From: Dehalococcoidia bacterium
GTDB taxonomy: Bacteria > Chloroflexota > Dehalococcoidia > GIF9 > UBA5629
Direction: 5' to 3'
NCBI GenBank assembly: GCA_050011565.1
Contig: JBEKIW010000002.1
Coordinates: 352,001-416,000 of the forward strand
DNA: 64,000 bases
Part shown: positions 6,094 through 55,686 of the stretch, piece after piece
How positions within the stretch are numbered: position 1 is the first letter of the stretch
Layout of the letters: each line of letters starts with the position of its first letter
Made by a program: the position numbers and the translations under genes
The notes under the pieces: generated by a model
Seen by the model: only the letters and a program-made list of their open reading frames with translations
Database searches by the model: none
Told to the model about the DNA's origin: nothing

Positions 6094-7296
6094 ATGGGGA
6101 ATGAGAAGAAGCCGGAAAGAATGGTTTATCTGGATAACATGGCTACCACGCCCGTATTGCCCGAGGTGCTGGAGACGATGTTGCCCTATTTTCGGGAGGT
6201 CTATGGAAATCCGCAATCAATCCATTCCTGGGGCGACGAAGCCAGGGAAGCCATCGAGAAAGCCCGAGAGCAGGTGGCCGCCTTAGTCGGCGGCAATGCT
6301 GAAGAAATAATTTTCACGTCCAGCGGCAGTGAGGCTAATAATCTGGCGCTCAAAGGGCTTTCTCAGGGTCAGATGGCAAAGGGGAAGCACATAATTGTCT
6401 CGGCGGTCGAGCATTTTTCGGTGCTACATGCTGCCAGAACTTTGGAGAAAGCTGGTTTTGAGATTACCGAGGTGCCGGTGGATAAATACGGAATGGTCGA
6501 CCCCGATGAAGTGGCCAGAAATATTAAGAAAGAAACCATACTGGTGTCGGTGATGCATGCCAACGGAGAAGTAGGCACCGTAGAGCCAATTGCCGAGATA
6601 GCTAAAAAGGTTAAAGAGGCCGGCGTGCTATTTCACACGGATGCTGTTGCCAGCGCCGGCAGCATACCCGTTGATGTCAACAAACTGGGAGCAGACGCCT
6701 TGAGCCTGGCCGGGAATGAATTTTATGGGCCTAAGGGATCAGGTGCCCTCTGGGTACGTAAGAGGGTCCGTCTTATTCCGTTAATGGACGGTGGGGTGCA
6801 GGAAGGTGGACGCAGGCCGGGCACGGAAAATGTGCCGGCTATTGTGGGTATGGGAAAAGCTGCTGAAGTGGCGTCGAGAGACATGCCGTCGCGCATGGAA
6901 AAGCTGTCCCGCCTGAGAGACAGGCTAATCAAAGGTCTACCGGCGGCAATTGACCATGTATTTCTTACCGGTCATCCAACTCAGCGTCTTCCCCAAAACG
7001 CCAGCTTTTGCGTTGAGTTTATTGAAGGCGAAGGCATGCTGCTGCTGCTTAACAGCCAGGGCATAGCTGTCTCCAGTGGCTCAGCCTGCACCTCCAAAGC
7101 CTTGAAAGCCTCCCATGTGCTTATTGCCATGGGTATTCCGCACGAGATTGCCCAGGGCTCTTTGCTTTTTGGCCTGGGGGTGGACGATGACGAGGCGGAT
7201 ATAGATTACGTATTGGAGAAGTTGCCTCCTATTGTTGATAGATTGAGGCAAATGTCTCCCTTATATGCTAAATTTATGAAAGAAAAGAGGGGGTGA
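6094..7296 (+). CDS. iscS: Cysteine desulfurase
   Basis: [27 protein letters not shown]. Confidence 0.95.
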
Positions 7297-7742
7297 GTTA
7301 TATGCCAGCATATAATGAAAAAGTTATGGACCATTTTATGAACCCCCGCAATGTCGGGGAGATTAAAGATGCCGATGGCATCGGTGAGGTAGGCAACCCG
7401 GTGTGCGGTGATATGATGACGTTTTACATTAAGGTAAAAGATAACCGTCTTGAGGATGTCAAATTTCAGACCTTCGGCTGTGGGGCTGCGGTGGCCGTTT
7501 CCAGCATTACCAGCGAGATGGCAAAGGGTAAAACGCTGGAGGAGGCAGTAAAAATTACACCCAGTCTGGTAGCTAAAGAATTAGAAGGTTTGCCCAAAAA
7601 CAAATATCATTGCTCTAATCTGGGAGCTCAAGCCCTACAACAGGCAATTCGTGATTATGCCAAGAAGAAGGGAATTAAAATCGAAGGTCTAGAAGAGAAA
7701 GGAGAAGGTGATGAAGAAGGAGAAGAGTGTGAAGTCTGCTAA
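7293..7742 (+). CDS. iscU: Fe-S scaffold IscU/NifU
   Basis: [26 protein letters not shown]; start may be 7302. Confidence 0.95.
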
Positions 7743-7944
7743 TAAATCCAGTAAAGCTAAGAAGGAGCATAGCTGTCTCTGCCCTTACTGCGAAGAGGAA
7801 CTGGTTATCGCTAGCTGTCCCTTTTGTGGGGCTTGTGGATCAGTCATCAGCTATTGTGTTAGCTGCCAGATAATGGTGCCGGATGAGAAAGCGACTAAGT
7901 GCCCTGAATGTGGCGCGCCGCTGAAGAAAGGGCGAAAGAAGTAA
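7708..7944 (+). CDS. Zinc-ribbon protein
   Basis: Four CxxC pairs (CPYC, CGAC, CVSC, CPEC). Confidence 0.75.
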   Translation: MMKKEKSVKSANKSSKAKKEHSCLCPYCEEELVIASCPFCGACGSVISYCVSCQIMVPDEKATKCPECGAPLKKGRKK

Positions 7945-7974
7945 GATAGAGATTACTATTCAGGAGAGAAAAGG

Positions 7975-8205
7975 ATGAAAGCAGACGAGACTCTGGATTG
8001 CTTGGGACTTTATTGTCCCATGCCTATTGCTAAAACCGCTCAAAAAATAAAGCAGTTGAAACCGGGGCAAGTGTTGGAAGTCCTGGCTGATGATAAGGGT
8101 ATAAAAGAGGATATCCCCAACTGGTGCAAGACTACCGGCAACGAATGCTTGGGCGTAGAAGAGGAAGGCGGTGTCTTTCGCGCGTATGTAAAAAAGACAA
8201 AATAG
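7975..8205 (+). CDS. tusA: TusA/SirA sulfur carrier
   Basis: LDCLGLYCPMP, LEVLADD, DIPNWC. Confidence 0.93.
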   Translation: MKADETLDCLGLYCPMPIAKTAQKIKQLKPGQVLEVLADDKGIKEDIPNWCKTTGNECLGVEEEGGVFRAYVKKTK

Positions 8206-46524: not shown

Positions 46525-47505
46525 CTATTTTTTCGATGTGGCTAAGACCGAGCCCAGAAAACGGGTTATTTCCCGTGCGATGACGGGATACCACAGCCAG
46601 AAGGTGACGTGTGTGCCCGGCAGCCACCTGATGGCAGGTTTATGACAGGCTTCCCAGAAGTCGAGCGTAGCCTCTTTGGGGATGGTCTTGTCCCACTTTG
46701 CATTTAACATTAATACCGGGCGCTCTCGGAGATAGGAGGCGAATGTCAGGGCATCGGTTAAGAAGCAATGGTTAAAGGGGACAACATTGTCCAAACCCTT
46801 CTCGGCTACTTCAGCCAGATACTGGGGATAGCGACTGCGAATCTCGCGGCATTCGGCTTCGGTGCAACCGTGACCCTTTACTATAGCTTCGTTCTGGGTG
46901 TTCCAGGTTATTTTCTCCGAGTTGCCGCCGGACACCATGAATACCCCGGCCTTGATGCGTTTGTCCACTCCCATCGCTATCTCGGAGACGAATCCGCCCA
47001 GGCTTATCCCGAGAACGGCTATTTGCTCTTTGTCCAGCTCCGGCCGACTGCTTGCCCAGTCTATTATCTGACGAACTTCAATTATCGATGCCCGATAGCC
47101 TTCAAACCAGTCTTCAGTGGTAAGATATGGCATATGGCTTTTCATGGTTTCCGACATGCGGCTGGTATGGAATACCAGGTATAAGATAAAGGCAGCAATG
47201 CCCTTTTTCACCAGAGTTCGCGCCAGCAATCTGCATGGTATTGTGCTACGGTCGCCCCATCCGTGAATTACTATAGCCAACGGAGCGTGGCTGACATTCC
47301 GCGGCTGAAAATATTCACCCAGGACACTGTTGTTTTCGTTATAGAGGGCGTAGGCGGTAGGGAAATCGACCGCATAACGCAACCAGCGAGATGTCGTTTC
47401 TTTCAGCTTCAGGTTAGCCTTAATATCCTGCCTTTGATAATTGTACGGATTCATGTATTTATCCGGCGGATCCTTTAAATATCTGTTGGACCAGAATGAG
47501 TGCAT
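46525..47505 (-). CDS. Alpha/beta hydrolase
   Basis: HGWG, GISLGG nucleophile elbow, D..IP, GTH. Confidence 0.88.
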   Translation of the reverse strand: MHSFWSNRYLKDPPDKYMNPYNYQRQDIKANLKLKETTSRWLRYAVDFPTAYALYNENNSVLGEYFQPRNVSHAPLAIVIHGWGDRSTIPCRLLARTLVKKGIAAFILYLVFHTSRMSETMKSHMPYLTTEDWFEGYRASIIEVRQIIDWASSRPELDKEQIAVLGISLGGFVSEIAMGVDKRIKAGVFMVSGGNSEKITWNTQNEAIVKGHGCTEAECREIRSRYPQYLAEVAEKGLDNVVPFNHCFLTDALTFASYLRERPVLMLNAKWDKTIPKEATLDFWEACHKPAIRWLPGTHVTFWLWYPVIAREITRFLGSVLATSKK

Positions 47506-47585
47506 CTTTACATATTAACTTCGGAGGAAATTTTTGGCAAACTCAGGGATTTTCGGTGGGGCGAACTGCCTCAGTGGGAGATACC

Positions 47586-47765
47586 TCAGCCAGGGCTGCT
47601 AATGCAGGATTTGCCAGAGGAAGCGGTGCCGAAGGTGGAGAAAATCCTTCGCGGCTGTTTCTTGCCGCATTTGGGACATTTTAATTCGCTGTCGCTGTCC
47701 GTTATTTTGCGATGCGCTTCAAACTTTTCGCCGCAGGATGGGCACTTATATTCATAGATTGGCAT
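47586..47765 (-). CDS. FmdB-family zinc-ribbon protein, 59 aa (not in ORF track); possible Sec read-through to 47571
   Basis: MPIYEYKCPSCGEKFE..CPKCG..RRIFSTFGTASSGKSCISSPG-TGA-GISH-TGA. Confidence 0.9.
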   Translation of the reverse strand: MPIYEYKCPSCGEKFEAHRKITDSDSELKCPKCGKKQPRRIFSTFGTASSGKSCISSPG

Positions 47766-47780
47766 AATTCCATTCTCCCA

Positions 47781-49055
47781 TTAAGCTAAAGCTTTTACTG
47801 CCAGCTCTGAGACGCTACTGGCTTCGACATTCAAGCCGTAATGCTCGCTTAGATCTCCGATTTGCTGACGGCAGTTATCGCAGGAAGTGATAACGAGGCT
47901 GGCACCGGTGCGTTTAACCTGCTCAGCCTTAAGCTTCCCCGCCTGCATGCGGATATCTAACCATTCCGGCTCGGCCACCAGTCCGCTGCCGGCGCCACAA
48001 CAATAGCTCTCCAGCCGGTTTGGCGTCATCTCTCGAAAATCCTTAACCGCGGCTCGGATTACACGTCGGGGTTCGTCGAAAATACCGCCTTTACGGCCCA
48101 AATTACAGGAGTCGTGATATGTGGTCGGCTGTCCATTCTTGGAGGAATCCAAGTGTAGACGCCCTTCTCTAACGTATTCATCGAGTACTTCTAGGATGCT
48201 GCGGACCCGAAACGGAAGCTGTCCAAACCATTTGGGAGCCTCCCAGCGCATAGTGGTGTAACCATGGCCGCACTCGGTGACGATGATCTCCTCAGCTTTA
48301 AGTTTTTTGGCCTCATTGATAACACGCCCGGTGATGCGCTTGGACTTGATGCCATCGGCCAGAAAAACGGCGTAGTTGGATGACTCGAACATGCCCAGGG
48401 TCCATGATTCCTTAGCTGCATTGAACAGTATAGCCTGAGGGACAATGGTATGAGCCCCGGCCAGGGGTACGTAAAGCATGCGAGCGCCCTTCTCTTCCAC
48501 CGGTATCCGGGCTTTGGAGCTGCCCAGGCGGTCCTGGACTTCCTTTTCCAGTTCTTTAACCTGCTCCCGATATATATCGCGGAATAGTTCAGCGTTCTCT
48601 TCTTTGGCAATGGCAGCGTTAGCCAGCTCCACCAGCATTTCCGGGGCATTGCCGGTGGCGGTGGCTATCGCCCTCATTATGCGCATGATTTCGGCTGTCT
48701 CCACGCCAAAGGGGCAGGCGAAAGTGCAACGGTGGCACAGCGTACAACTGGCAAAAGCAATCTCCGCCAGCTTGGACAACATCTCGTCGGTCGTCTCTTT
48801 GACGCCCACCCACCGCGGGAATGCGCGTCCCATGGGGTCGAAAAAGCGACGGTACAATCGCCGCACCATTTCGGCACGGTAATAGGGAGTGTGCTCCGTC
48901 CGGGGATTGGACTGGTAATAGTGACAGCTTTCGGTGCATATGCCGCAGCGGACACATACCTCTAGCGCCGTCAGCACCCTGCGGTCAACCAGATTGCCCA
49001 GCATTTCCCGGGCTATGGTTAGCTTATCTTTTTTTGTTTCTACTGCGCTACTCAT
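47781..49055 (-). CDS. DsrK/TmcB/HdrD-like Fe-S CCG-domain oxidoreductase
   Basis: CVRCGICTESC, CTLCHRCTFAC, TECGHG, YHDSC, YCCGAG, TSCDNC. Confidence 0.88.
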   Translation of the reverse strand: MSSAVETKKDKLTIAREMLGNLVDRRVLTALEVCVRCGICTESCHYYQSNPRTEHTPYYRAEMVRRLYRRFFDPMGRAFPRWVGVKETTDEMLSKLAEIAFASCTLCHRCTFACPFGVETAEIMRIMRAIATATGNAPEMLVELANAAIAKEENAELFRDIYREQVKELEKEVQDRLGSSKARIPVEEKGARMLYVPLAGAHTIVPQAILFNAAKESWTLGMFESSNYAVFLADGIKSKRITGRVINEAKKLKAEEIIVTECGHGYTTMRWEAPKWFGQLPFRVRSILEVLDEYVREGRLHLDSSKNGQPTTYHDSCNLGRKGGIFDEPRRVIRAAVKDFREMTPNRLESYCCGAGSGLVAEPEWLDIRMQAGKLKAEQVKRTGASLVITSCDNCRQQIGDLSEHYGLNVEASSVSELAVKALA

Positions 49056-49680
49056 GTGTCCACTCCAGTACGCCGCGGCGCCCGAAGAACAAACCGACAA
49101 AGACGCGTTCGTAAAAGAAATAAATAAAGTGTTTAATCTTGCCGAATGGCGCGTAAGCCAGCGTTATGCCGGAGATAGCCCAGAATAGGGGTAAAAAGTC
49201 CGGTTTGATAGCGGATGCGGCGCCTGCTGCCAGGAATAGTGTCACCAGCGCCAGAGAGAAATAATCATCCGGGGTGCTTAGCAGCCGCATGGTTGGGTCG
49301 CCCAATCTTATGCCGAAACCTGCCACACCCAATACAGCGCCGACGCCGAAAAGAGCCGCTAAAGAGATGCGTAGCGGCAATATCATCTGCGTCAGCCATG
49401 GGCTGGCAATAAGAAACGCTGCGGCCACGAATATGCCAACATGAATGATTATGCCGCGTATATAAGCTACCCAATGCCGTCGAGCGCTCTCCTTGGCCCA
49501 CGGAGCCATGCCCAGAGTGAAAGCATAAAGGACGCCTTGTGCTGGAGAACGTTTGACTGGCGCTTGTTCAGACTGGTAGGGCCGGCGCTGAGCAGCGACA
49601 AGAACGTATAATACGCCAATAATAAAGATGACGGCACCAACCAGTGCTATTCCGGCGGTCACCATCTGCAACATACTCAT
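49048..49680 (-). CDS. NarI/DsrM/HdrE-like membrane cytochrome b subunit
   Basis: About 5 TM helices, IIIHVG, R.LSTPDDY, PFGKIKH; overlaps the DsrK-like gene. Confidence 0.82.
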   Translation of the reverse strand: MSMLQMVTAGIALVGAVIFIIGVLYVLVAAQRRPYQSEQAPVKRSPAQGVLYAFTLGMAPWAKESARRHWVAYIRGIIIHVGIFVAAAFLIASPWLTQMILPLRISLAALFGVGAVLGVAGFGIRLGDPTMRLLSTPDDYFSLALVTLFLAAGAASAIKPDFLPLFWAISGITLAYAPFGKIKHFIYFFYERVFVGLFFGRRGVLEWTHE

Positions 49681-49919
49681 TTCACTTTCTTGATATGGAA
49701 CCTGATTAGCTTGCCATCTCTTTCGATGGAGATAAGCTCGTTGCCGGTGCTCTTGGTCCAGGCAGGTATATCTGCCAGTACACCAGGGTCGGTGGCCGTG
49801 GCTTCTAGTACTTTGCCCACCTCCATGGTTTTAATTGCCTGGCTCACCTTAACTATCGGGATAGGGCAAAGTAGACCCTCAAGATTTAGTTTAACATCTG
49901 CATTTGTTTGTCCTGGCAT
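49677..49919 (-). CDS. TusA/SirA sulfur carrier
   Basis: LEGLLCPIP, ATDPG..DIPAW. Confidence 0.92.
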   Translation of the reverse strand: MPGQTNADVKLNLEGLLCPIPIVKVSQAIKTMEVGKVLEATATDPGVLADIPAWTKSTGNELISIERDGKLIRFHIKKVK

Positions 49920-49935
49920 TATTTTCTCCTCATGC

Positions 49936-50412
49936 CTATACAAATAATGTCATCTTGGAGTGGAAAGCTTTCTCCAGCATGGTAGCCACTCCGCAAGACT
50001 CTTCGGCCTCGTCAATCAGGTGTTCCGCCTTTATCTCCATGACCTGCATGCTCATCTCGCAGGGCAGGAGCTTAACTCCCAGGTCGATGGCGGTCTGCCG
50101 GAGTTCCTCCAGCGGTGTTATTTTATGTGACTTCATCATTTGTTTGAACATCCACCGGCCGATGCCCCAGAAATTGAAACGCGACGGGCCGATAGTATTG
50201 ATACCGCCCCGGTTGAGGAGGCCCATCATGCGGCCGAAGAAGCCCTGACCTGTTAGATTTCCTTTCTGTATGGCTTTTATACCCCAGAAGGTGAAAAACA
50301 TATTGGTTTCTTTGCCGGCTGCGGCAGCTCCGATGGCGATATTGAAGGCTGCCATGACCTTGTCCATGTCACCGCTAAATACGATTATGGTTACACCATC
50401 TTCTTTTGCCAT
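49936..50412 (-). CDS. DsrE2/DsrE-like sulfurtransferase
   Basis: FSGDMDK, MFFTFWG, PCEMSM, CGVAT, TLFV. Confidence 0.92.
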   Translation of the reverse strand: MAKEDGVTIIVFSGDMDKVMAAFNIAIGAAAAGKETNMFFTFWGIKAIQKGNLTGQGFFGRMMGLLNRGGINTIGPSRFNFWGIGRWMFKQMMKSHKITPLEELRQTAIDLGVKLLPCEMSMQVMEIKAEHLIDEAEESCGVATMLEKAFHSKMTLFV

Positions 50413-50621
50413 TTCTGTCTCCTTCACAATTATTAATACACGTTAGATGCGGCACCCTGTACCATGGGGTGGGTGCCGTGCGCCCCCTTAACCAAACTGA
50501 CATGAATTTACCCTGCTTACACCTCCTTCATAGCGTAAACGCGCTGACCTGATATTTATCAAGGTAATTGATGACCTTTTGTTATTTCCAACTTGCGTGC
50601 GAGGCTTCCAGCCTCATCTGT

Positions 50622-50810
50622 CTAGCTTCAGCCGCCGCCGAAGGCGAACTGAGTAAAGAACCTTAACTTATCGGTAGGGCTGTCTAATTTTTCAACTTTG
50701 CCGCCACCGCAGCGGGGGCACTTCACGTTCTTATCGTCTTTCACATTATCCAGATTGGGTTTCTTAAATGTGACGCGACATTCATTACATCCGTATTCCT
50801 GGACTTGCAT
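50622..50810 (-). CDS. FmdB-like zinc-ribbon protein, probably ending GGG-Sec-Ser (TGA at 50628-50630)
   Basis: EYGCNEC..CPRCG..FAFGGG-TGA-AGC-TAG followed by hairpin GAGGCT-GGA-AGCCTC. The gene is solid; the read-through is inferred. Confidence 0.8.
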
Positions 50811-50834
50811 TGTATATCTCCTTTAACTCTGAAA

Positions 50835-51167
50835 TTAAGCTACCAGCCTCTCGGCTAGCTGTTTGTTCTTCTCCATCCGGTCGAGCAGTATCTCATGCAC
50901 CATGTCACAGGCATCGCCGATTTTGGGGTCGCTGAGGCTGTAGTAGACACTGGTCCCTTCTCGCCGGAACTGCACCACCCCTTTGTCCCTGAGAATCGCC
51001 AGATTACGGGAGACAACCGCCTGAGGAAACTCGAGCACCCTTGCCAGCTCGCCCACAGTCGTCTCACCCTGTCGCAGCTCATCGATGATGATAAGCCGCT
51101 TGGCGTCAGCGAAGGTCTTGCATAGTTCCGCCTTTAGTGCGTAAAGTTCAAGATTGTGTCTGGCCAA
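50835..51167 (-). CDS. ArsR/SmtB-family regulator
   Basis: KTFAD.KRL.II, VGEL, VSRNLAILR, REG..VYYSL; TTG start after AGGAAGG. Confidence 0.92.
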   Translation of the reverse strand: MARHNLELYALKAELCKTFADAKRLIIIDELRQGETTVGELARVLEFPQAVVSRNLAILRDKGVVQFRREGTSVYYSLSDPKIGDACDMVHEILLDRMEKNKQLAERLVA

Positions 51168-51193
51168 TGGGCACCTTCCTCATGGTTAATACA

Positions 51194-51239
51194 AATATAT
51201 ATATAGACGTATATTATCATATTGTGTGGGCATTGTCAA
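51194..51239 (-). promoter_or_regulatory. Promoter and candidate operator of the arsR operon
   Basis: TTGACA-N17-TAATAT overlapping the imperfect palindrome AATATACGTCTATATATATATT (51194-51215). Confidence 0.6.
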
Positions 51240-51259
51240 ACCACCTATCCCCGGTGGGG

Positions 51260-51399
51260 AAATCCCAAATCCTAAGCACCAAATCCTAAATAATATCAAA
51301 ATACTAATTCTCCAAATTCAGGATAGTTTATCTTTGTGCCGTTCGAATTTTGAGATTTGGATTTGTTTGATGCTTGGAATTTATTATTTATAATTTGGG
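51260..51399. repeat. Heptamer-built inverted-repeat element (CAAATCC-type left arm, GATTTGG-type right arm)
   Basis: AAATCCCAAATCCTAAGCACCAAATCCTAAA..GATTTGGATTTGTTTGATGCTTGGAATTT. Confidence 0.7.
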
Positions 51400-51460
51400 C
51401 TGCCGGGGGGATATGGTGGGCACACGAATGGTGGTATAATAGGCATCTTGGGGGAAATAG

Positions 51461-53005
51461 ATGGCCAGGTACATAATCGCCCATGATGTAGGCACCAGCG
51501 GCAATAAAGCGGTTCTGGTGGATACTAAGGGGCGCGTCCACGGTAAATGTATTGAGCCTTACAAAACGTATTTTCCGAAGCCAGGATGGGCGGAGCAGGA
51601 ACCGTCAGACTGGTGGAAGGCGGTAACGCGGACGACCAGGCTTCTCCTCGACCGGACAAATATATCTCCTAAAGACATTCTGTGCGTTACTTTCGGTACG
51701 CAGATGCTCGGCGTCATCCCCATTGACTCCAAAGGTGTGCCGCTGAGGCGTGCCATTATCTGGCTTGACAACCGCGCCGGTGAACAGGCGGAGCGGCTGA
51801 TGAGAAAATTCCTCGGACCTCGTGTCTTCGCCTTAATTGCCGGCACTGCCTTATGCGGCAAAGACGGCATGCCCAAGCTACTCTGGCTGAAAGGGGAAGA
51901 GCCTGATATTTACCACAAGATGTGTTGTTTTCTGGATACCTCGGGTTATCTTTTCTATCGCAGCACCGGCAACATGGCCATGGAGTGGACCGGCGCTTCA
52001 GTCTTCGGGCTCGACCTGAAAAAGAAAACATGGATGACCAGTATTTTCAGCTATGTCGGACTTGATACCGAGAAGCTGCCCCCGTTAGTACGATCGATCG
52101 ATAAGGTCGGTGAACTTACCAGAGAAGCTGCCAGGGAATACGGACTTTTGCCCGGCACACCGGTTATGGCTGGCGCCGGCGATGCTCCCTGCGCCGTAGT
52201 TGGCTCCGGCGCCGTCGGCGAAGGCGAAGGTCATGTTTATCTGGGAACCTCCGGCTGGGTGGGCGTGGTCACCAGGCGAATACTGCAGGGTAAATGCGGC
52301 GCCGCCACCATTCATTCGGCAGACCCCGACAAGACGTTTCTATTTGCCGAGACTGAAGCAGCCGGCGGCTGCATCCAGTGGATCGCCGACCAGTTTTACA
52401 AAGCGGAAAAAAAGGACCCGAATATACCCAATGTTTATGCTCTGATGGACGATGAGGTGGCTAAAATTCCACCGGGCTCCAATTATCTTCTTTTCACCCC
52501 CTGGATTTATGGAGAAAGAGCTCCCATTAACGATTGTTATGTCCGTGCCTCATTTCTCAACTTGAGCGCCGAGCATACCCGCGAGGATATGCTGCGTGCC
52601 GTATATGAAGGTGTGGCTTATAACATCAGGTGGATTGTGGAAATCGTAGAGAAAGAGTTCAAGTTGCCACTGCCGCAACTCAGGGTTATAGGTGGAGGCG
52701 CCAAGGGCAAACCCTGGATGCAGATAATGGCTGATGTTACCGGCAGAAAAATTGAGACCGTCTGCGACCCTCAGGAAGCTGGCGCCGTAGGTGCCGCACT
52801 GATAGCGGCGGTTGGCCTGGGAATATACCCGGACTTCGAGTCGCTGAAAAAGGTAATCAAAGTGGACAGGGTATTTGAGCCACAGCCCCGGAATTCGGAT
52901 ATTTATAATACGCTGTATGGTTCGTATCATGAAGTCTACAGTAGCTTACGTAATTTCTATAGAAGGCTGAATAAGGAGCGATTCGACAAGGCGGTGTGTG
53001 AGTAG
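51461..53005 (+). CDS. FGGY carbohydrate kinase (xylulokinase-like)
   Basis: HDVGTSGNKA, WAEQ.P..WW, IIWLDNR, GAGD, GTSGW, GER, EGVA, GGGA. Confidence 0.92.
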   Translation: MARYIIAHDVGTSGNKAVLVDTKGRVHGKCIEPYKTYFPKPGWAEQEPSDWWKAVTRTTRLLLDRTNISPKDILCVTFGTQMLGVIPIDSKGVPLRRAIIWLDNRAGEQAERLMRKFLGPRVFALIAGTALCGKDGMPKLLWLKGEEPDIYHKMCCFLDTSGYLFYRSTGNMAMEWTGASVFGLDLKKKTWMTSIFSYVGLDTEKLPPLVRSIDKVGELTREAAREYGLLPGTPVMAGAGDAPCAVVGSGAVGEGEGHVYLGTSGWVGVVTRRILQGKCGAATIHSADPDKTFLFAETEAAGGCIQWIADQFYKAEKKDPNIPNVYALMDDEVAKIPPGSNYLLFTPWIYGERAPINDCYVRASFLNLSAEHTREDMLRAVYEGVAYNIRWIVEIVEKEFKLPLPQLRVIGGGAKGKPWMQIMADVTGRKIETVCDPQEAGAVGAALIAAVGLGIYPDFESLKKVIKVDRVFEPQPRNSDIYNTLYGSYHEVYSSLRNFYRRLNKERFDKAVCE

Positions 53006-53022
53006 ATATCCACTAATTCTTA

Positions 53023-53074
53023 TAGGGGCGAGGCTTTAGCCTCGCCCAGTGCGACCTTAAAAGGTCGCACCTAC
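53023..53074. repeat. REP-like double hairpin
   Basis: GGGCGAGGC-TTTA-GCCTCGCCC then GTGCGACCT-TAAA-AGGTCGCAC-CTAC; degenerate copy at 62269-62309. Confidence 0.8.
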
Positions 53075-53144
53075 ATGAGACGATGATGAGTGATGCTAAA
53101 CAAGGGAAAGATTCGATAAGACAGTGTGTGAAGGAGGTGTTTAA

Positions 53145-54455
53145 ATGAATGGCGATGATATTTTGAGCCTGCCCATTGCCCTGCCCGACGGCGTGGATTA
53201 TGACGACTACGTTATCGGCACCTATCTGGTCTCTTATCCAGCCTCGCTGCCTCTCCCTATAATTGCGCCTTTCCTGGCTATCGAGCAGAGCACGGGGACG
53301 TGGGTGGCTGTGCCCGGCGAGACCGAGGAAGTCCGACGTCAGCATATCGCCAAGGTGGTGGGTGTTTATGAAATGCCCGACTACGAGTCCACCGTGCCGG
53401 CGAATCTACAGACCAGGCAGTGGTTCGTCCAGGTGGCTTATCCCGAGGTAAACATCGGTGAGCAGATACCCATGCTGCTGACCACAGTGGTGGGCAACAT
53501 CTCCATGGGCGGCGAAATAAAGCTGGTGGACATGCGTTTTCCGAAGAAATTCGCTGCCGGTTTCAAGGGCCCCAAATTCGGCGTCGACGGCATACGTAAG
53601 CTTCTGGGAATTCCGAAGCGACCACTGCTAAATAACATGATAAAGCCCTGCACCGGCTATACCTGCGAAGTCGGGGCTGAACTGTTTCGCAAAGCGGCCG
53701 CCGGCGGCTGCGACATCGTTAAGGACGACGAGCTTATTGCCGACGCCTCGTTCAACTCGGCGCTGGAGCGCGTCAAGCTTTATATGCAGGTTGAGAAGCA
53801 GGTCTTCGAGGAAACCGGTGAACATACGCTGTACACAGTGAATGTAACGGATAAAATACCAAAGGTCTTCGAGACTGCCAAACGCGCCGTGGAATTGGGC
53901 TGCAACGCGCTGATGATAAACTACCTGGCTGTCGGCTTTCCGGTGTTGCAGGCGCTGGCTGAAGACACCAGCCTGAATGTGCCCATACTGGCACATATGG
54001 ACGTGGCCGGCGCTCTGTACATGTCGCCTTATCACGGCATGAGCTCTCATCTGGTGCTGGGCAAATTGCCGCGGCTAGCAGGCGCCGACGTAGTTGTTAT
54101 CCCCGCCCCCTACGGCAAGGCGCCGGTAATTGACTATAAGTTCAAAAATGTTGCCCGAAACCTGTTATTCCCGCTATATAACCTGAAGCCCACGTTCCCC
54201 ATGGCATCGGGCGGCATCACCCCGTCCATGGTGCCGCAGGTGATGATGGCGCTGGGCAATGACATAGTCATAGGTTCCGGAGGCGGCATTCATGCGCATC
54301 CCCAGGGTGCCATCGCCGGAGGCAAAGCCTTCCGGCAGGCGATAGATGCTACCATGCAGGGCATTCCGCTGGCCGACTATGCCAAGGAGCATGAGGAGCT
54401 GGCGATTTCACTAAAGGAGTGGGTCGACCCGTTCAGCAGAGGAATCAGAATTTGA
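53145..54455 (+). CDS. RuBisCO-like protein (form IV)
   Basis: EQSTGTW, VGN, GPKFG, IKP, KDDE, SGG, GGGIHAHP.G; lacks several carboxylase residues. Confidence 0.93.
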   Translation: MNGDDILSLPIALPDGVDYDDYVIGTYLVSYPASLPLPIIAPFLAIEQSTGTWVAVPGETEEVRRQHIAKVVGVYEMPDYESTVPANLQTRQWFVQVAYPEVNIGEQIPMLLTTVVGNISMGGEIKLVDMRFPKKFAAGFKGPKFGVDGIRKLLGIPKRPLLNNMIKPCTGYTCEVGAELFRKAAAGGCDIVKDDELIADASFNSALERVKLYMQVEKQVFEETGEHTLYTVNVTDKIPKVFETAKRAVELGCNALMINYLAVGFPVLQALAEDTSLNVPILAHMDVAGALYMSPYHGMSSHLVLGKLPRLAGADVVVIPAPYGKAPVIDYKFKNVARNLLFPLYNLKPTFPMASGGITPSMVPQVMMALGNDIVIGSGGGIHAHPQGAIAGGKAFRQAIDATMQGIPLADYAKEHEELAISLKEWVDPFSRGIRI

Positions 54456-54468
54456 AAGGAGCAGTAAG

Positions 54469-55686
54469 ATGTCTAAAGTTACGGTTTTAGGCGGCAGTGG
54501 TGCGGTTGGCAGCATAGCCTCGGAGACGCTGGCTTCGAGCGGTGTATTCTCCGAAGTAACGGTGGCTGATATAAATATTGCAGCCGCCAGAAAGGTAGCC
54601 GGCAAGCTAAAGGGGAGTAAGGTCTCTGCTGTCGAATTCGATGCCGATGGCCCCCAGAGCCTGAGAAAGGTAATCGGCGGCTCATCAGTGGTACTGAACT
54701 GCGTGGGTCCTTTCTACAAGTACGGGCCCACCATACTAAAAACGGTGATAGAAGCCAGAATAAACTATGTTGATATCTGTGATGATTTCGATGCTACCGA
54801 GAAGCTGCTGGCAATGGATGACAAGGCCAAGAAAGCCGGCGTTTCAGCGCTCATCGGCATGGGCAGCTCTCCCGGCGTAGCTAATATTCTGGTCAGGTTC
54901 TGCGCTGATTCCCTGCTCGACCAGGTGGAGGCGGTGGATATATACCACGCCCACGGCGGCGAAAAAATTGAAGGACCGGCGGTAGTGAAACACCGGATTC
55001 ATTCCATGCAGATAGGTATTCCGATGTTCCTCGACGGCAAATTTACTACCGTGAATCTATTTGACGACAGCGGCAAGGCATTGGAAGAGGAGGCCGAGTT
55101 TAAAGATGTCGGCACCTACAACGTCTACGGCTATCCGCATCCCGAGACAATAACCCTGCCTAAATATTTGAAGGGTTTGAAGAGGGTAACCAACCTGGGG
55201 CTGGTGCTGCCTCCGGCTTACGCCGAGCTGATAAAGGGTATGGTCAGGCTGGGCGTTACCGATGAGAAACCCATCGAAGTACAGGGCCATAAGATTGTGC
55301 CGCTGGAATTTGCCGTAGCCTATATACTTTCCCAGCGGGAGAGATTGCTGAAAGAGGCCGGGATTAACCAGCCTATGGGCTGCTTGAAGATCGTGGTTAA
55401 AGGGGTCAAGGACGGCGGCAAGAACACTTATATCTTCTCCATGTCTTCCCGGGGGCAGGGTATGGGCGAAGGCACGGGCATACCGGCCGCTATTGGCGCC
55501 ATAATTATGGGTACGGGAAAGATTACGCTGAAAGGCGTTTTGCCGCCCGAGGCCTGCGTCAACCCCATGGACCTGCTGGAGCTGGCTAAGACCAAAGTAA
55601 AGACGGTTGGCGGCAAGGGCTTCCCCATTTCCATCGAGCATATCGATAAGGACGGCAAGTCGCAGAAGTTGAACCTGTTTAGCTAG
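54469..55686 (+). CDS. Saccharopine dehydrogenase-family oxidoreductase
   Basis: LGGSGAVG, NCVGPF, YVDICD, GSSPG, HPE, GVLPPE. Confidence 0.9.
   Translation: MSKVTVLGGSGAVGSIASETLASSGVFSEVTVADINIAAARKVAGKLKGSKVSAVEFDADGPQSLRKVIGGSSVVLNCVGPFYKYGPTILKTVIEARINYVDICDDFDATEKLLAMDDKAKKAGVSALIGMGSSPGVANILVRFCADSLLDQVEAVDIYHAHGGEKIEGPAVVKHRIHSMQIGIPMFLDGKFTTVNLFDDSGKALEEEAEFKDVGTYNVYGYPHPETITLPKYLKGLKRVTNLGLVLPPAYAELIKGMVRLGVTDEKPIEVQGHKIVPLEFAVAYILSQRERLLKEAGINQPMGCLKIVVKGVKDGGKNTYIFSMSSRGQGMGEGTGIPAAIGAIIMGTGKITLKGVLPPEACVNPMDLLELAKTKVKTVGGKGFPISIEHIDKDGKSQKLNLFS

Follow-up and report, generated by a model that had tools for sequence, protein, structure and literature searches.

Gene content of the operon

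We analysed a window of 64,000 nucleotides (the whole stretch of DNA, positions 352001-416000 of contig C2) from the genome of a Dehalococcoidia bacterium (G000; GCA_050011565.1), an assembly of 2.0 Mb in 8 contigs that is 99.2% complete and 0.42% contaminated and whose closest public relatives are metagenome-assembled genomes of Dehalococcoidia and Chloroflexota. On its minus strand, running from 51167 to 47571, seven co-oriented genes lie behind one strong promoter-like site in the order arsR, fmdB1, a DsrE-like gene, tusA, a gene for a membrane subunit, a gene for an iron-sulfur protein with a CCG domain (the CCG protein) and fmdB2. The tusA and membrane genes overlap by 4 bases, and the membrane and CCG genes by 8 bases. 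Gene calls and family scans bore out the original prediction, made from the letters of the window, of a seven-gene minus-strand cluster with two overlaps at this position. Our analyses suggest that the four genes from the DsrE-like gene to the CCG gene could constitute a conserved module for the reduction of carrier-bound sulfur that is independent of DsrC, and that both FmdB proteins probably end in selenocysteine (Sec). The features of the operon are the following, SECIS standing for selenocysteine insertion sequence.

51211..51239, minus strand: sigma-70-like promoter upstream of arsR (TTGACA, 17 nucleotides, TAATAT, with TG), from a consensus match alone (10/12), the best site in the region
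50835..51167, minus strand: arsR, ArsR/SmtB-family repressor of 110 residues (NF033788, 78 bits, cut-off 55)
50810-50631, minus strand (50622..50810 with the read-through tail): fmdB1, small zinc-ribbon protein of 60 residues followed by TGA at 50630-50628 (TIGR02605)
50600..50616, minus strand: candidate SECIS hairpin of fmdB1 from folding, 7 base pairs with a GGA loop, 15-31 nucleotides after the UGA
49936..50412, minus strand (alternative start 50427): DsrE-like sulfur transferase of the DrsE_2 family (PF13686, 138.8 bits)
49677..49919, minus strand (alternative start 49943): TusA-family sulfur carrier (PF01206, 71.5 bits)
49048..49680, minus strand: membrane subunit of 210 residues, NarI/TmcC/HmcE-like, candidate haem-b anchor (weak TmcC/HmcE scores, NarI fold matches)
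47781..49055, minus strand: CCG iron-sulfur protein of 424 residues (family scans, tree, conserved cysteines)
47589-47765, minus strand (47571..47765 with the read-through tail): fmdB2, zinc-ribbon protein of 59 residues followed by TGA at 47588-47586 (TIGR02605, 71 bits)
47558..47572, minus strand: candidate SECIS hairpin of fmdB2 with an AGUUC loop, 17-31 nucleotides after the UGA

The CCG protein carries two CxxCxxCxxxC motifs and a CCG domain (PF02754, 46.4 bits; Fer4_8, 43.9 bits), which places it in the DsrK/HmcF/TmcB/HdrD superfamily. The 8 cysteines of the two 4Fe-4S motifs and the 6 cysteines of the CCG site, 14 in all, were invariant in 20/20 homologues. Its gene starts with the ATG at 49055, as in the homologues, the upstream TTG at 49100 being disfavoured. 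The operon TusA exceeded the PF01206 cut-off of 28.6 bits by a wide margin and belongs to the TusA family; it has a single active-site cysteine, Cys26 in the numbering of the open reading frame, and the pair Cys26-Pro27 was invariant in 20/20 homologues. It fitted the YedF and TusA models equally well (E 3.7e-13 and 8.8e-13), in both cases below cut-off. A second TusA is encoded elsewhere in the window, in a row with a NifS-like cysteine desulfurase and NifU (6094-8205, plus strand), and, since this housekeeping copy stands beside NifS and NifU, the operon TusA appears to be specialised. The DsrE-like protein fell below the DsrE2 equivalog model NF047629 (61.6 bits, cut-off 210) and kept Cys123 in 19/19 homologues; the closest solved structures were 2qs7, the nearest, and 3pnx. 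As for the repressor, ArsR scored 55 bits with the BigR model, whose cut-off is 155, and its Cys16 was kept in 7/7 homologues. The spacing between Cys16 and Cys87 is 71 residues, compared with 66 in SoxR (Cys50 and Cys116), one of the ArsR-type repressors with two cysteines that sense sulfane sulfur according to the relevant parts of PMC10451225.

The membrane subunit had no Pfam match, and its only family matches were TmcC (48 bits) and HmcE (39 bits), both far below the cut-offs. Three histidines, His69, His80 and His184, were invariant in 16/16 homologues. The AlphaFold model was all-helical (pLDDT 83), and the top 8 Foldseek matches to it were NarI chains of nitrate reductase, at weak values (E 0.04-0.1, TM 0.35-0.49). 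Because of the three invariant histidines and the weak NarI fold match we call the subunit NarI-like and probably haem-binding rather than a proven di-haem DsrM.

Conservation of the four-gene core in genomes that mostly lack DsrC and DsrA

The neighbourhood of the CCG gene was compared in two sets of loci. The first comprised 13 close loci from a scan of a genome collection, 12 of which reach upstream of the membrane gene. The second was a phylum sample of 401 genomes, 20 of which had a CCG match at E<=1e-60, giving 26 loci. Loci L020 and L030 are identical, since one genome is present in both sets. The order DsrE-like gene, tusA, membrane gene and CCG gene was found in 11 of the 12 close loci that reach upstream, the exception being L012, in which tusA is reduced to a 20-residue remnant. 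In the phylum sample, the DsrE-like gene and tusA lay directly upstream in 10/26 loci, whose CCG proteins were 39-73% identical to that of the window. Counting the duplicate once, the core was present in 20 further Chloroflexota loci, and the fact that its order was kept across both sets indicates an arrangement beyond chance. No gene outside the operon was conserved in the flanks of 10 related loci. The regulator beside the core varied with the lineage: ArsR occupied this place in 7/12 close loci, L016 and L017 had a PocR-HTH protein, and two-component systems were present at L018 and L022.

We then considered the Dsr proteins at the scale of whole genomes. Neither DsrC (PF04358) nor DsrA (TIGR02064) had a match in the 99.2%-complete genome of the window. 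Among 14 genomes bearing the cluster, DsrC was present in 3 and missing from 11, and DsrA was present in 2 and missing from 12. These further absences weigh less, because completeness is known for the genome of the window only. Two related genomes, G010 and G011, do carry dsrAB and dsrC. Taken together, the genome searches support a four-gene module that is independent of DsrC and DsrAB.

Phylogeny of the CCG protein

Among the curated models, DsrK (NF045796) was the best-scoring one for the CCG protein, although at 245.7 bits it remained well below the cut-off of 400; TmcB (NF045724) reached 231 bits (cut-off 735) and HmcF (NF045711) 209 bits (cut-off 750). The scanned TusA-linked relatives all scored 240-289 bits on the DsrK model. 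We built trees from 150 cluster representatives of an exhaustive HMMER search (5265 proteins, E<=0.001), together with the 26 phylum-sample and the 13 genome-collection loci. An NCBIfam scan of 101 CCG proteins provided the references: 9 true DsrK, 1 HmcF (P0273, 927 bits), 1 near-TmcB (P0229, 724 bits) and 2 TfrB-like proteins that served as outgroup.

In the FastTree phylogeny (100 rows), all CCG proteins with an upstream tusA and DsrE-like gene fell into one clade of 25 rows with a support of 99. This clade additionally holds L012 and three representatives whose gene context is not known, and the phylum-sample loci within it are exactly the 10 with the DsrE-like gene and tusA upstream. All 9 true DsrK lay within a separate clade of 32 rows (support 100), while HmcF and near-TmcB stood in a clade of 21 rows, both outside the TusA-linked one. 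IQ-TREE, run on 64 of those rows (36 were omitted, mostly unlabelled representatives and near-duplicates), recovered the same three clades with SH-aLRT values of 99, 100 and 95, the TusA-linked clade now having 23 rows, and did not resolve their branching order. By both the curated cut-off and the tree, the sequence of the CCG protein is not that of a canonical DsrK.

Two CCG relatives, P0184 (661 residues) and P0188 (670 residues), are extended at the N-terminus by ~250 residues, which may represent a membrane subunit fused to them. Outside the operon, the genome of the window has 11 more CCG-domain matches, in six other reading frames.

Predicted contact between TusA and the CCG site

The complex of the CCG protein (20-row alignment) and TusA (19-row alignment) was modelled with an ipSAE score of 0.78, compared with 0.01 for the best control. 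That value is reached by 116/157 solved complexes and by 2/215 mismatched pairs, a rough calibration, since analysis-specific alignments were used here. The runs agreed in at least 98% of the contacts, and the pLDDT of the partners was at least 81. In the predicted interface, TusA residues 25-28, the loop bearing Cys26, lie on CCG residues 198-202, 226, 361, 363, 393 and 397, which flank the invariant cysteines 352, 353, 392 and 395; the helix 139-169 also contributes. No solved complex is close to the CCG protein by sequence, the sole solved match being partial (9ojn_A), so recall of a known structure is an unlikely cause of the model.

Much of the original prediction therefore stood at this level. 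The lack of dsrAB and dsrC, noted for the window, extends to the whole genome as far as DsrC and DsrA matches are concerned, and most cluster-bearing genomes share it. The linkage of TusA and DsrE to the membrane and CCG genes, for which conservation had been asked, recurs in both sets of loci. The tree that had been suggested put the CCG protein apart from DsrK, HmcF and near-TmcB, and the proposed complex prediction docked the Cys26 loop of TusA on the surface of the CCG domain. Of the two outcomes named in advance as refuting the idea, a cluster without conservation and a canonical DsrK accompanied by dsrABC elsewhere in the genome, neither was observed.

Probable selenocysteine tails of the FmdB proteins

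fmdB2 scored well above the TIGR02605 cut-off of 31.3 bits and has two CxxC pairs, which makes it a member of the FmdB family; a look-up of fmdB2 in a protein-cluster atlas returned FmdB clusters only. fmdB1 scored 31.3 bits, exactly at that cut-off, and 30.1 bits with PF09723, below the cut-off of 34.4. If the TGA of fmdB1 were read through, one codon and a TAG would follow, leaving Sec second from the end with no cysteine nearby. Read-through of the TGA of fmdB2 would add four codons before a second TGA, giving a tail made of a cysteine, five residues and Sec-Gly. Among the fmdB1 homologues, 19/22 are exactly 60 residues long (the rest 59, 38 and 38), and the 12 whose ends were read finish in GGG (11) or SGG (1). 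All but a few of 59 database homologues of fmdB2 end at the same place. One of them, P0138, has a tryptophan at the TGA position followed by the same four residues. P0170, P0176 and P0177 have cysteine-type FmdB tails that contain a second cysteine a few residues after the first and are too short and variable for a confident alignment to the TGA.

The genome of the window encodes a complete Sec machinery, as SelA (572 bits), SelB (368 bits) and SelD (396 bits) all scored above their cut-offs and a tRNA-Sec is present; selD, selA, selB and the tRNA-Sec gene form a cluster on contig C4 (46992-52951). selD has one in-frame TGA in all 16 genomes in which it was found, including this one; in G006 it is split over two contigs, with the TGA in the N-terminal fragment.

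As a candidate SECIS element we took a hairpin about 16-37 nucleotides downstream of a conserved in-frame TGA, and both fmdB1 and fmdB2 have one. The TGA of fmdB2 is kept in 5/5 DNA sequences, and the TGA with the codons that follow it in L010, L012 and L021. In L015, Sec would be second from the end and the protein would finish two residues after Tyr-Ser. A hairpin with an AGUU(C/U) loop also occurs in L010, L012, L015 and L021 and in the distant FmdB loci L051 and L052; its loop and stem core are invariant in 7/7 aligned sequences, and stem pairs change among L012, L015, L051 and L052. For fmdB1, the TGA is kept in 2/2 sequences: L021 shows the TGA, one codon and the TAG, and its hairpin is equally far from the TGA but differs in the loop. 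The FmdB hairpins are not followed by a T-run. With Rfam at E up to 10, the stretch 47300-51400 gave no SECIS family and just two chance snoRNA matches.

A family-wide sample was made of the 80 best metagenome matches to the Sec-tailed fmdB2 query, generic FmdB relatives of 37-60% identity. Thirty of these 80 loci stop at a TGA with at most 6 further codons, a share that does not extend to the whole FmdB family, because the sample was drawn with a Sec-tailed query. A hairpin of at least 5 base pairs was present in 27/30 TGA-stop loci, with its loop centre 21-27 nucleotides after the U of UGA in 24/27. In contrast, only 12/37 loci with other stops had such a hairpin and just 2/12 had it at that spacing. 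The median fold energy was -10.7 kcal/mol for the TGA-stop loci and -3.8 kcal/mol for the others (Mann-Whitney p = 4e-8). Bacterial SECIS elements have a spacing that agrees with 21-27 nucleotides. The Sec tails of the metagenome loci (e.g. L052:4740-4935, L072, L083, L089:1144-1350 and L112) often read aromatic-Ser/Thr-Sec-Gly/Ala. Altogether, the full Sec machinery, the conserved TGA codons and the hairpins at fixed spacing argue that both FmdB proteins of the operon probably end in selenocysteine, as first suspected from their reading frames.

Few of the 80 loci resemble the operon in context: one lies near a weak CCG match, one beside arsR and one near a DsrE-like gene. Other neighbours of Sec-tailed fmdB genes are an ArsR repressor with a convergent selB (L052:4373-7243), CsoR-family repressors (L056, L072 and L112), a rhodanese (L087:5229-5687), a thioredoxin (L062:4368-4721), a DrsE_2 protein with an HMA domain (L089:157-998), an HMA domain (L073) and NifU. 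From their sequences, and without a control set, these neighbours hint at thiol, persulfide or metal chemistry.

Discussion

We lean, by no large measure, towards reading the four conserved genes as those of a relative of DsrMK, HmcEF and TmcBC that does without DsrC and reduces sulfane sulfur bound to TusA. We infer this mechanism, including what the substrate is, which way the reaction runs, the haem, the electron partner in the membrane, the insertion of Sec and any FmdB role. A NarI-like membrane subunit, its haem b probably held by the three invariant histidines, would move electrons between a membrane carrier and the cytoplasmic CCG protein, and the latter would hold a non-cubane cluster site besides two cubane 4Fe-4S clusters. 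The substrate would be sulfur on the single cysteine of the co-encoded TusA, not on DsrC, with the DsrE-like transferase loading or unloading TusA. Acting reductively, the enzyme would convert a TusA persulfide, or a TusA-S(n)-DsrE bridge, into thiols and H2S. Its role could be the removal or the respiration of sulfane sulfur, with induction upon modification of the thiol-reactive ArsR-type repressor. The FmdB proteins added in this lineage, with a flexible Ser/Gly linker and a probable Sec at or near the C-terminus, might be mobile nucleophilic arms that attack or carry sulfur.

Several observations weigh against this reading. The contact between TusA and the CCG site expresses the confidence of the model itself and is no measurement. 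The NarI fold match of the membrane subunit is weak, and only three histidines are invariant where a NarI-type di-haem needs four. Coupling to quinones is doubtful from the gene content of this genome: NuoH is present, the MenA-like match is below cut-off (76 and 102 bits, respectively), no MenB was found above cut-off and no MqnA was found, so the usual assumption of menaquinone coupling is without backing here. Persulfide reduction driven by menaquinol would, moreover, be thermodynamically tight. The second cysteine of ArsR, Cys87, is kept in only 4/7 homologues, and the BigR score is far below its cut-off. For the Sec tails, the fmdB2 hairpin of the window is itself weak (z = -0.65), weaker than in its relatives, and is omitted from the minimum-energy fold. 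G003, the genome of L012, keeps the fmdB2 TGA tail and hairpin, yet no SelB was found above cut-off and no SelD at E<=1e-30; its tRNA-Sec is present (C1:598893-598985, 74 bits), and the pattern may reflect a recent loss of Sec use or an assembly gap. As for the distribution of the FmdB genes, fmdB1 was seen in one further locus only (L021), and fmdB2 follows the CCG gene in only 3-4/12 close loci and in 0/10 TusA-linked loci of the phylum sample. It stands there in the window, L012 and L015, is frameshifted in L021 and is represented by a tail remnant in L010. Since fmdB genes are missing from most module loci, the core would work without FmdB proteins, and fmdB2 is, from its distribution, an accessory specific to the lineage that lies outside the conserved core. 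The notion of two Sec-tailed zinc ribbons bracketing the module as carriers was thus supported as regards the tails, whereas the bracketing by putative carriers is a lineage-specific addition of few loci. Lastly, the opposite direction of the reaction is equally compatible with the data.

That opposite direction is the alternative that we take most seriously, although we regard it as rather unlikely. The same machine would run oxidatively, the CCG subunit oxidising sulfide or a thiol into a TusA persulfide with electrons passing to the membrane, and TusA and the DsrE-like protein handing the sulfur on to energy gain or biosynthesis. The clade, the conserved residues and the complex model fit both directions, and, given a membrane acceptor, oxidising sulfide to the level of sulfane sulfur is favoured thermodynamically. 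The genome search found no importer of the YeeE/YedE type, for either thiosulfate or sulfane sulfur, which makes free sulfide a plausible input. Relays of TusA and DsrE also supply the oxidative sHdr and rDsr systems, as set out in parts of PMC11094781. However, a sulfur-oxidising enzyme to act downstream was not identified (DsrAB is lacking, and no search was made for sHdr or Sox), and biosynthetic sulfur is already served by the NifS-NifU-TusA set.

A further possibility bears on the FmdB component alone, where we judge it improbable: the TGAs would be ordinary stops, the hairpins structures that stabilise or terminate the transcript, and the FmdB proteins bystander zinc-ribbon regulators. 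The family annotation, 'putative regulatory protein', would agree with this, as would the scan without an Rfam SECIS family, the weak hairpin of fmdB2 in the window, the retention of its tail in G003 and the lack of fmdB in most module loci. It would not explain why hairpin position and energy differ between FmdB loci with TGA and with other stops, nor why the sequence beyond the TGA is kept and why one homologue reads through with tryptophan at the TGA position; no T-run marks a terminator, and the genome has everything needed for Sec.

We consider it very unlikely that the operon is a selenium relay, the alternative named in the original prediction, in which the YedF-like TusA, the DsrE-like protein and the Sec-tailed FmdB proteins would handle selenide or selenopersulfide for SelD or for detoxification while the CCG enzyme reduces Se-S bonds. 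The equal match of the operon TusA to the selenium-metabolism model YedF, the two probable selenoproteins within the operon and the position of a Sec-tailed fmdB next to selB in L052 speak for it, and comparative genomics ties YedF and DsrE-like proteins to selenium in the relevant sections of PMC9312934. Nevertheless, SelD was not found in 8/24 module genomes, two of them 98-99% complete (7/23 distinct genomes if G011 and G091, apparently the same genome, are counted once), the sel genes lie on another contig than the operon and no YedE was found.

A module for soft-metal or metalloid stress seems to us highly improbable as well. ArsR would then sense a metal, and the Cys/Sec tails of the FmdB proteins, TusA and the DsrE-like protein would act as chelating chaperones. 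ArsR does match a metalloregulator subfamily, and other Sec-tailed fmdB genes stand beside CsoR-family repressors and HMA domains; still, the CsoR family also includes persulfide sensors, the regulators of the core vary between lineages, and no part in handling metals is known for a membrane CCG redox enzyme that is syntenic with TusA and DsrE. That the operon simply encodes a canonical DsrMK serving DsrC and DsrAB from elsewhere has next to no probability. In its favour, DsrK is the top curated model and G010 and G011 carry dsrAB and dsrC; against it, the CCG protein reaches only 246 bits where the DsrK cut-off is 400, the clade is apart from all 9 true DsrK and the nearly complete genome yielded neither DsrC nor DsrA.

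For a membrane-anchored CCG enzyme that would act on TusA-bound sulfane sulfur, both parts and logic have precedents in DsrMK with DsrC and in sHdr with its TusA/DsrE3 cascade. DsrMK, the core of DsrMKJOP, which acts on the DsrC trisulfide in sulfate reducers and sulfur oxidisers, likewise pairs a NarI-like membrane subunit with a cytoplasmic protein carrying two 4Fe-4S motifs and a CCG site; the genes are adjacent and overlapping in both, and the substrate proposed here is again a small protein that presents sulfur on a cysteine. The present CCG protein differs in scoring below the DsrK cut-off and falling into a separate clade, in the lack of any DsrC, DsrA or dsrJOP context found, and in the constant link to tusA and to a gene of the DsrE type. 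Neukirchen et al. (2023, PMC10504309) reported DsrM sequences that are basal and come from Chloroflexi lacking DsrAB, and left them uninterpreted in the passages that concern them. HmcEF and TmcBC, which in Desulfovibrio-type sulfate reducers belong to the Hmc and Tmc complexes, provide the only family matches of the membrane subunit, and TmcB and HmcF can be aligned with the CCG protein over its full length; the scores are, however, far below the cut-offs, the clade is separate and no cytochrome c subunits lie near the operon. With the sHdr system the module shares the genetic tie of TusA and DsrE-type transferases to a CCG-domain enzyme (PMC11094781, in part); sections of PMC10451225 describe two-cysteine ArsR-type repressors as sensors of sulfane sulfur, and the ArsR of the operon may be similar. 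Unlike sHdr, which is soluble and made of HdrA/B/C homologues and lipoate-binding proteins, the present system is membrane-anchored and of the DsrK/HmcF type, there is no lipoate-binding gene in the operon, and among solved structures 2qs7, of the DsrE2B type, comes closest to the DsrE-like protein.

C-terminal redox arms are known from DsrC, whose arm has a cysteine second from the end, and from thioredoxin reductase, whose tail is Gly-Cys-Sec-Gly. The FmdB tails would resemble them as flexible arms at the C-terminus in which the reactive residue is the penultimate one and a small residue comes last, fmdB2 having in addition a second cysteine a few residues upstream. The fold is nonetheless unrelated, being a zinc ribbon, and most module loci have no FmdB. 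FmdB selenoproteins of the same family (TIGR02605) were described from the Global Ocean Sampling data, with Sec in place of a cysteine of the small zinc ribbon (PMC2398784; PMC9312934; PMC13188914); in the portions of these papers that deal with them, the motif is CxxU, U/CxxU or UxxU, and 2 selenoproteins are set against 807 cysteine forms. By that published motif description, the tails found here would differ, as their putative Sec stands at the C-terminus or beside it, behind a Ser/Gly linker. A bolder idea, which we rate as speculative and not very probable, is that Sec-tailed FmdB proteins are widespread unrecognised selenoprotein 'swinging arms' whose terminal selenolate would carry sulfane sulfur, or resolve it, at the non-cubane Fe-S site of CCG enzymes, standing in for DsrC in this operon. 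If so, there would be a DsrC-free, TusA-fed and partly selenium-dependent reduction of sulfane sulfur at the membrane of uncultured peat and sediment Chloroflexota.

Our literature searches, which covered journals other than those under subscription, found no paper describing the module of DsrE, TusA, membrane and CCG proteins, in keeping with the first impression that the combination had not been described. What is new is the delimitation of the clade by means of the curated models of DsrK, HmcF and TmcB, the genomes without Dsr proteins and the modelled contact with TusA, together with the probable Sec tails of the flanking FmdB proteins and the sign that such tails may be common in the FmdB family. 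DsrMK-type enzymes are thought to depend on DsrC. If a sister clade uses TusA, carrier-linked sulfur redox chemistry at the membrane would extend to organisms without dissimilatory sulfite reductase, and a function could be assigned to 'Fe-S oxidoreductase' genes that are common in peat, wetland and sediment Chloroflexota. The function of the very large, uncharacterised family of FmdB zinc ribbons, part of which appears to end in Sec, also becomes testable. Standard gene callers truncate the Sec-tailed members, which are therefore invisible in protein databases.

Surroundings of the operon in the window

The operon region is covered by contigs of relatives from four DNA sequencing runs, no RNA run was among the sequencing runs listed for it, and in many metagenome contigs the similarity to it ends at ~51260. 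A joint skipping 47611-51267 in metagenome contigs was not trusted, as its short side has only 21 letters. Directly upstream of the arsR promoter, at 51259-51320, lies a dispersed repeat of ~60 nucleotides with 15 more copies (68-91% identity) over contigs C1-C7 of the genome. In L010, a sequence resembling this repeat takes the place of the zinc-ribbon part of fmdB2.

At the NifS-NifU-TusA row, a cysteine-rich zinc-ribbon open reading frame of 78 residues (7708-7944) lies between NifU and the second TusA, and genes for a rubrerythrin and a flavin-reductase-rubredoxin protein follow downstream. Divergent from the operon, the plus strand at 51461-55686 encodes an FGGY sugar kinase, a protein resembling the RuBisCO large subunit and a saccharopine-dehydrogenase-like protein. 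Genes for an FGGY kinase and a RuBisCO-like protein also adjoin the operon in L021.

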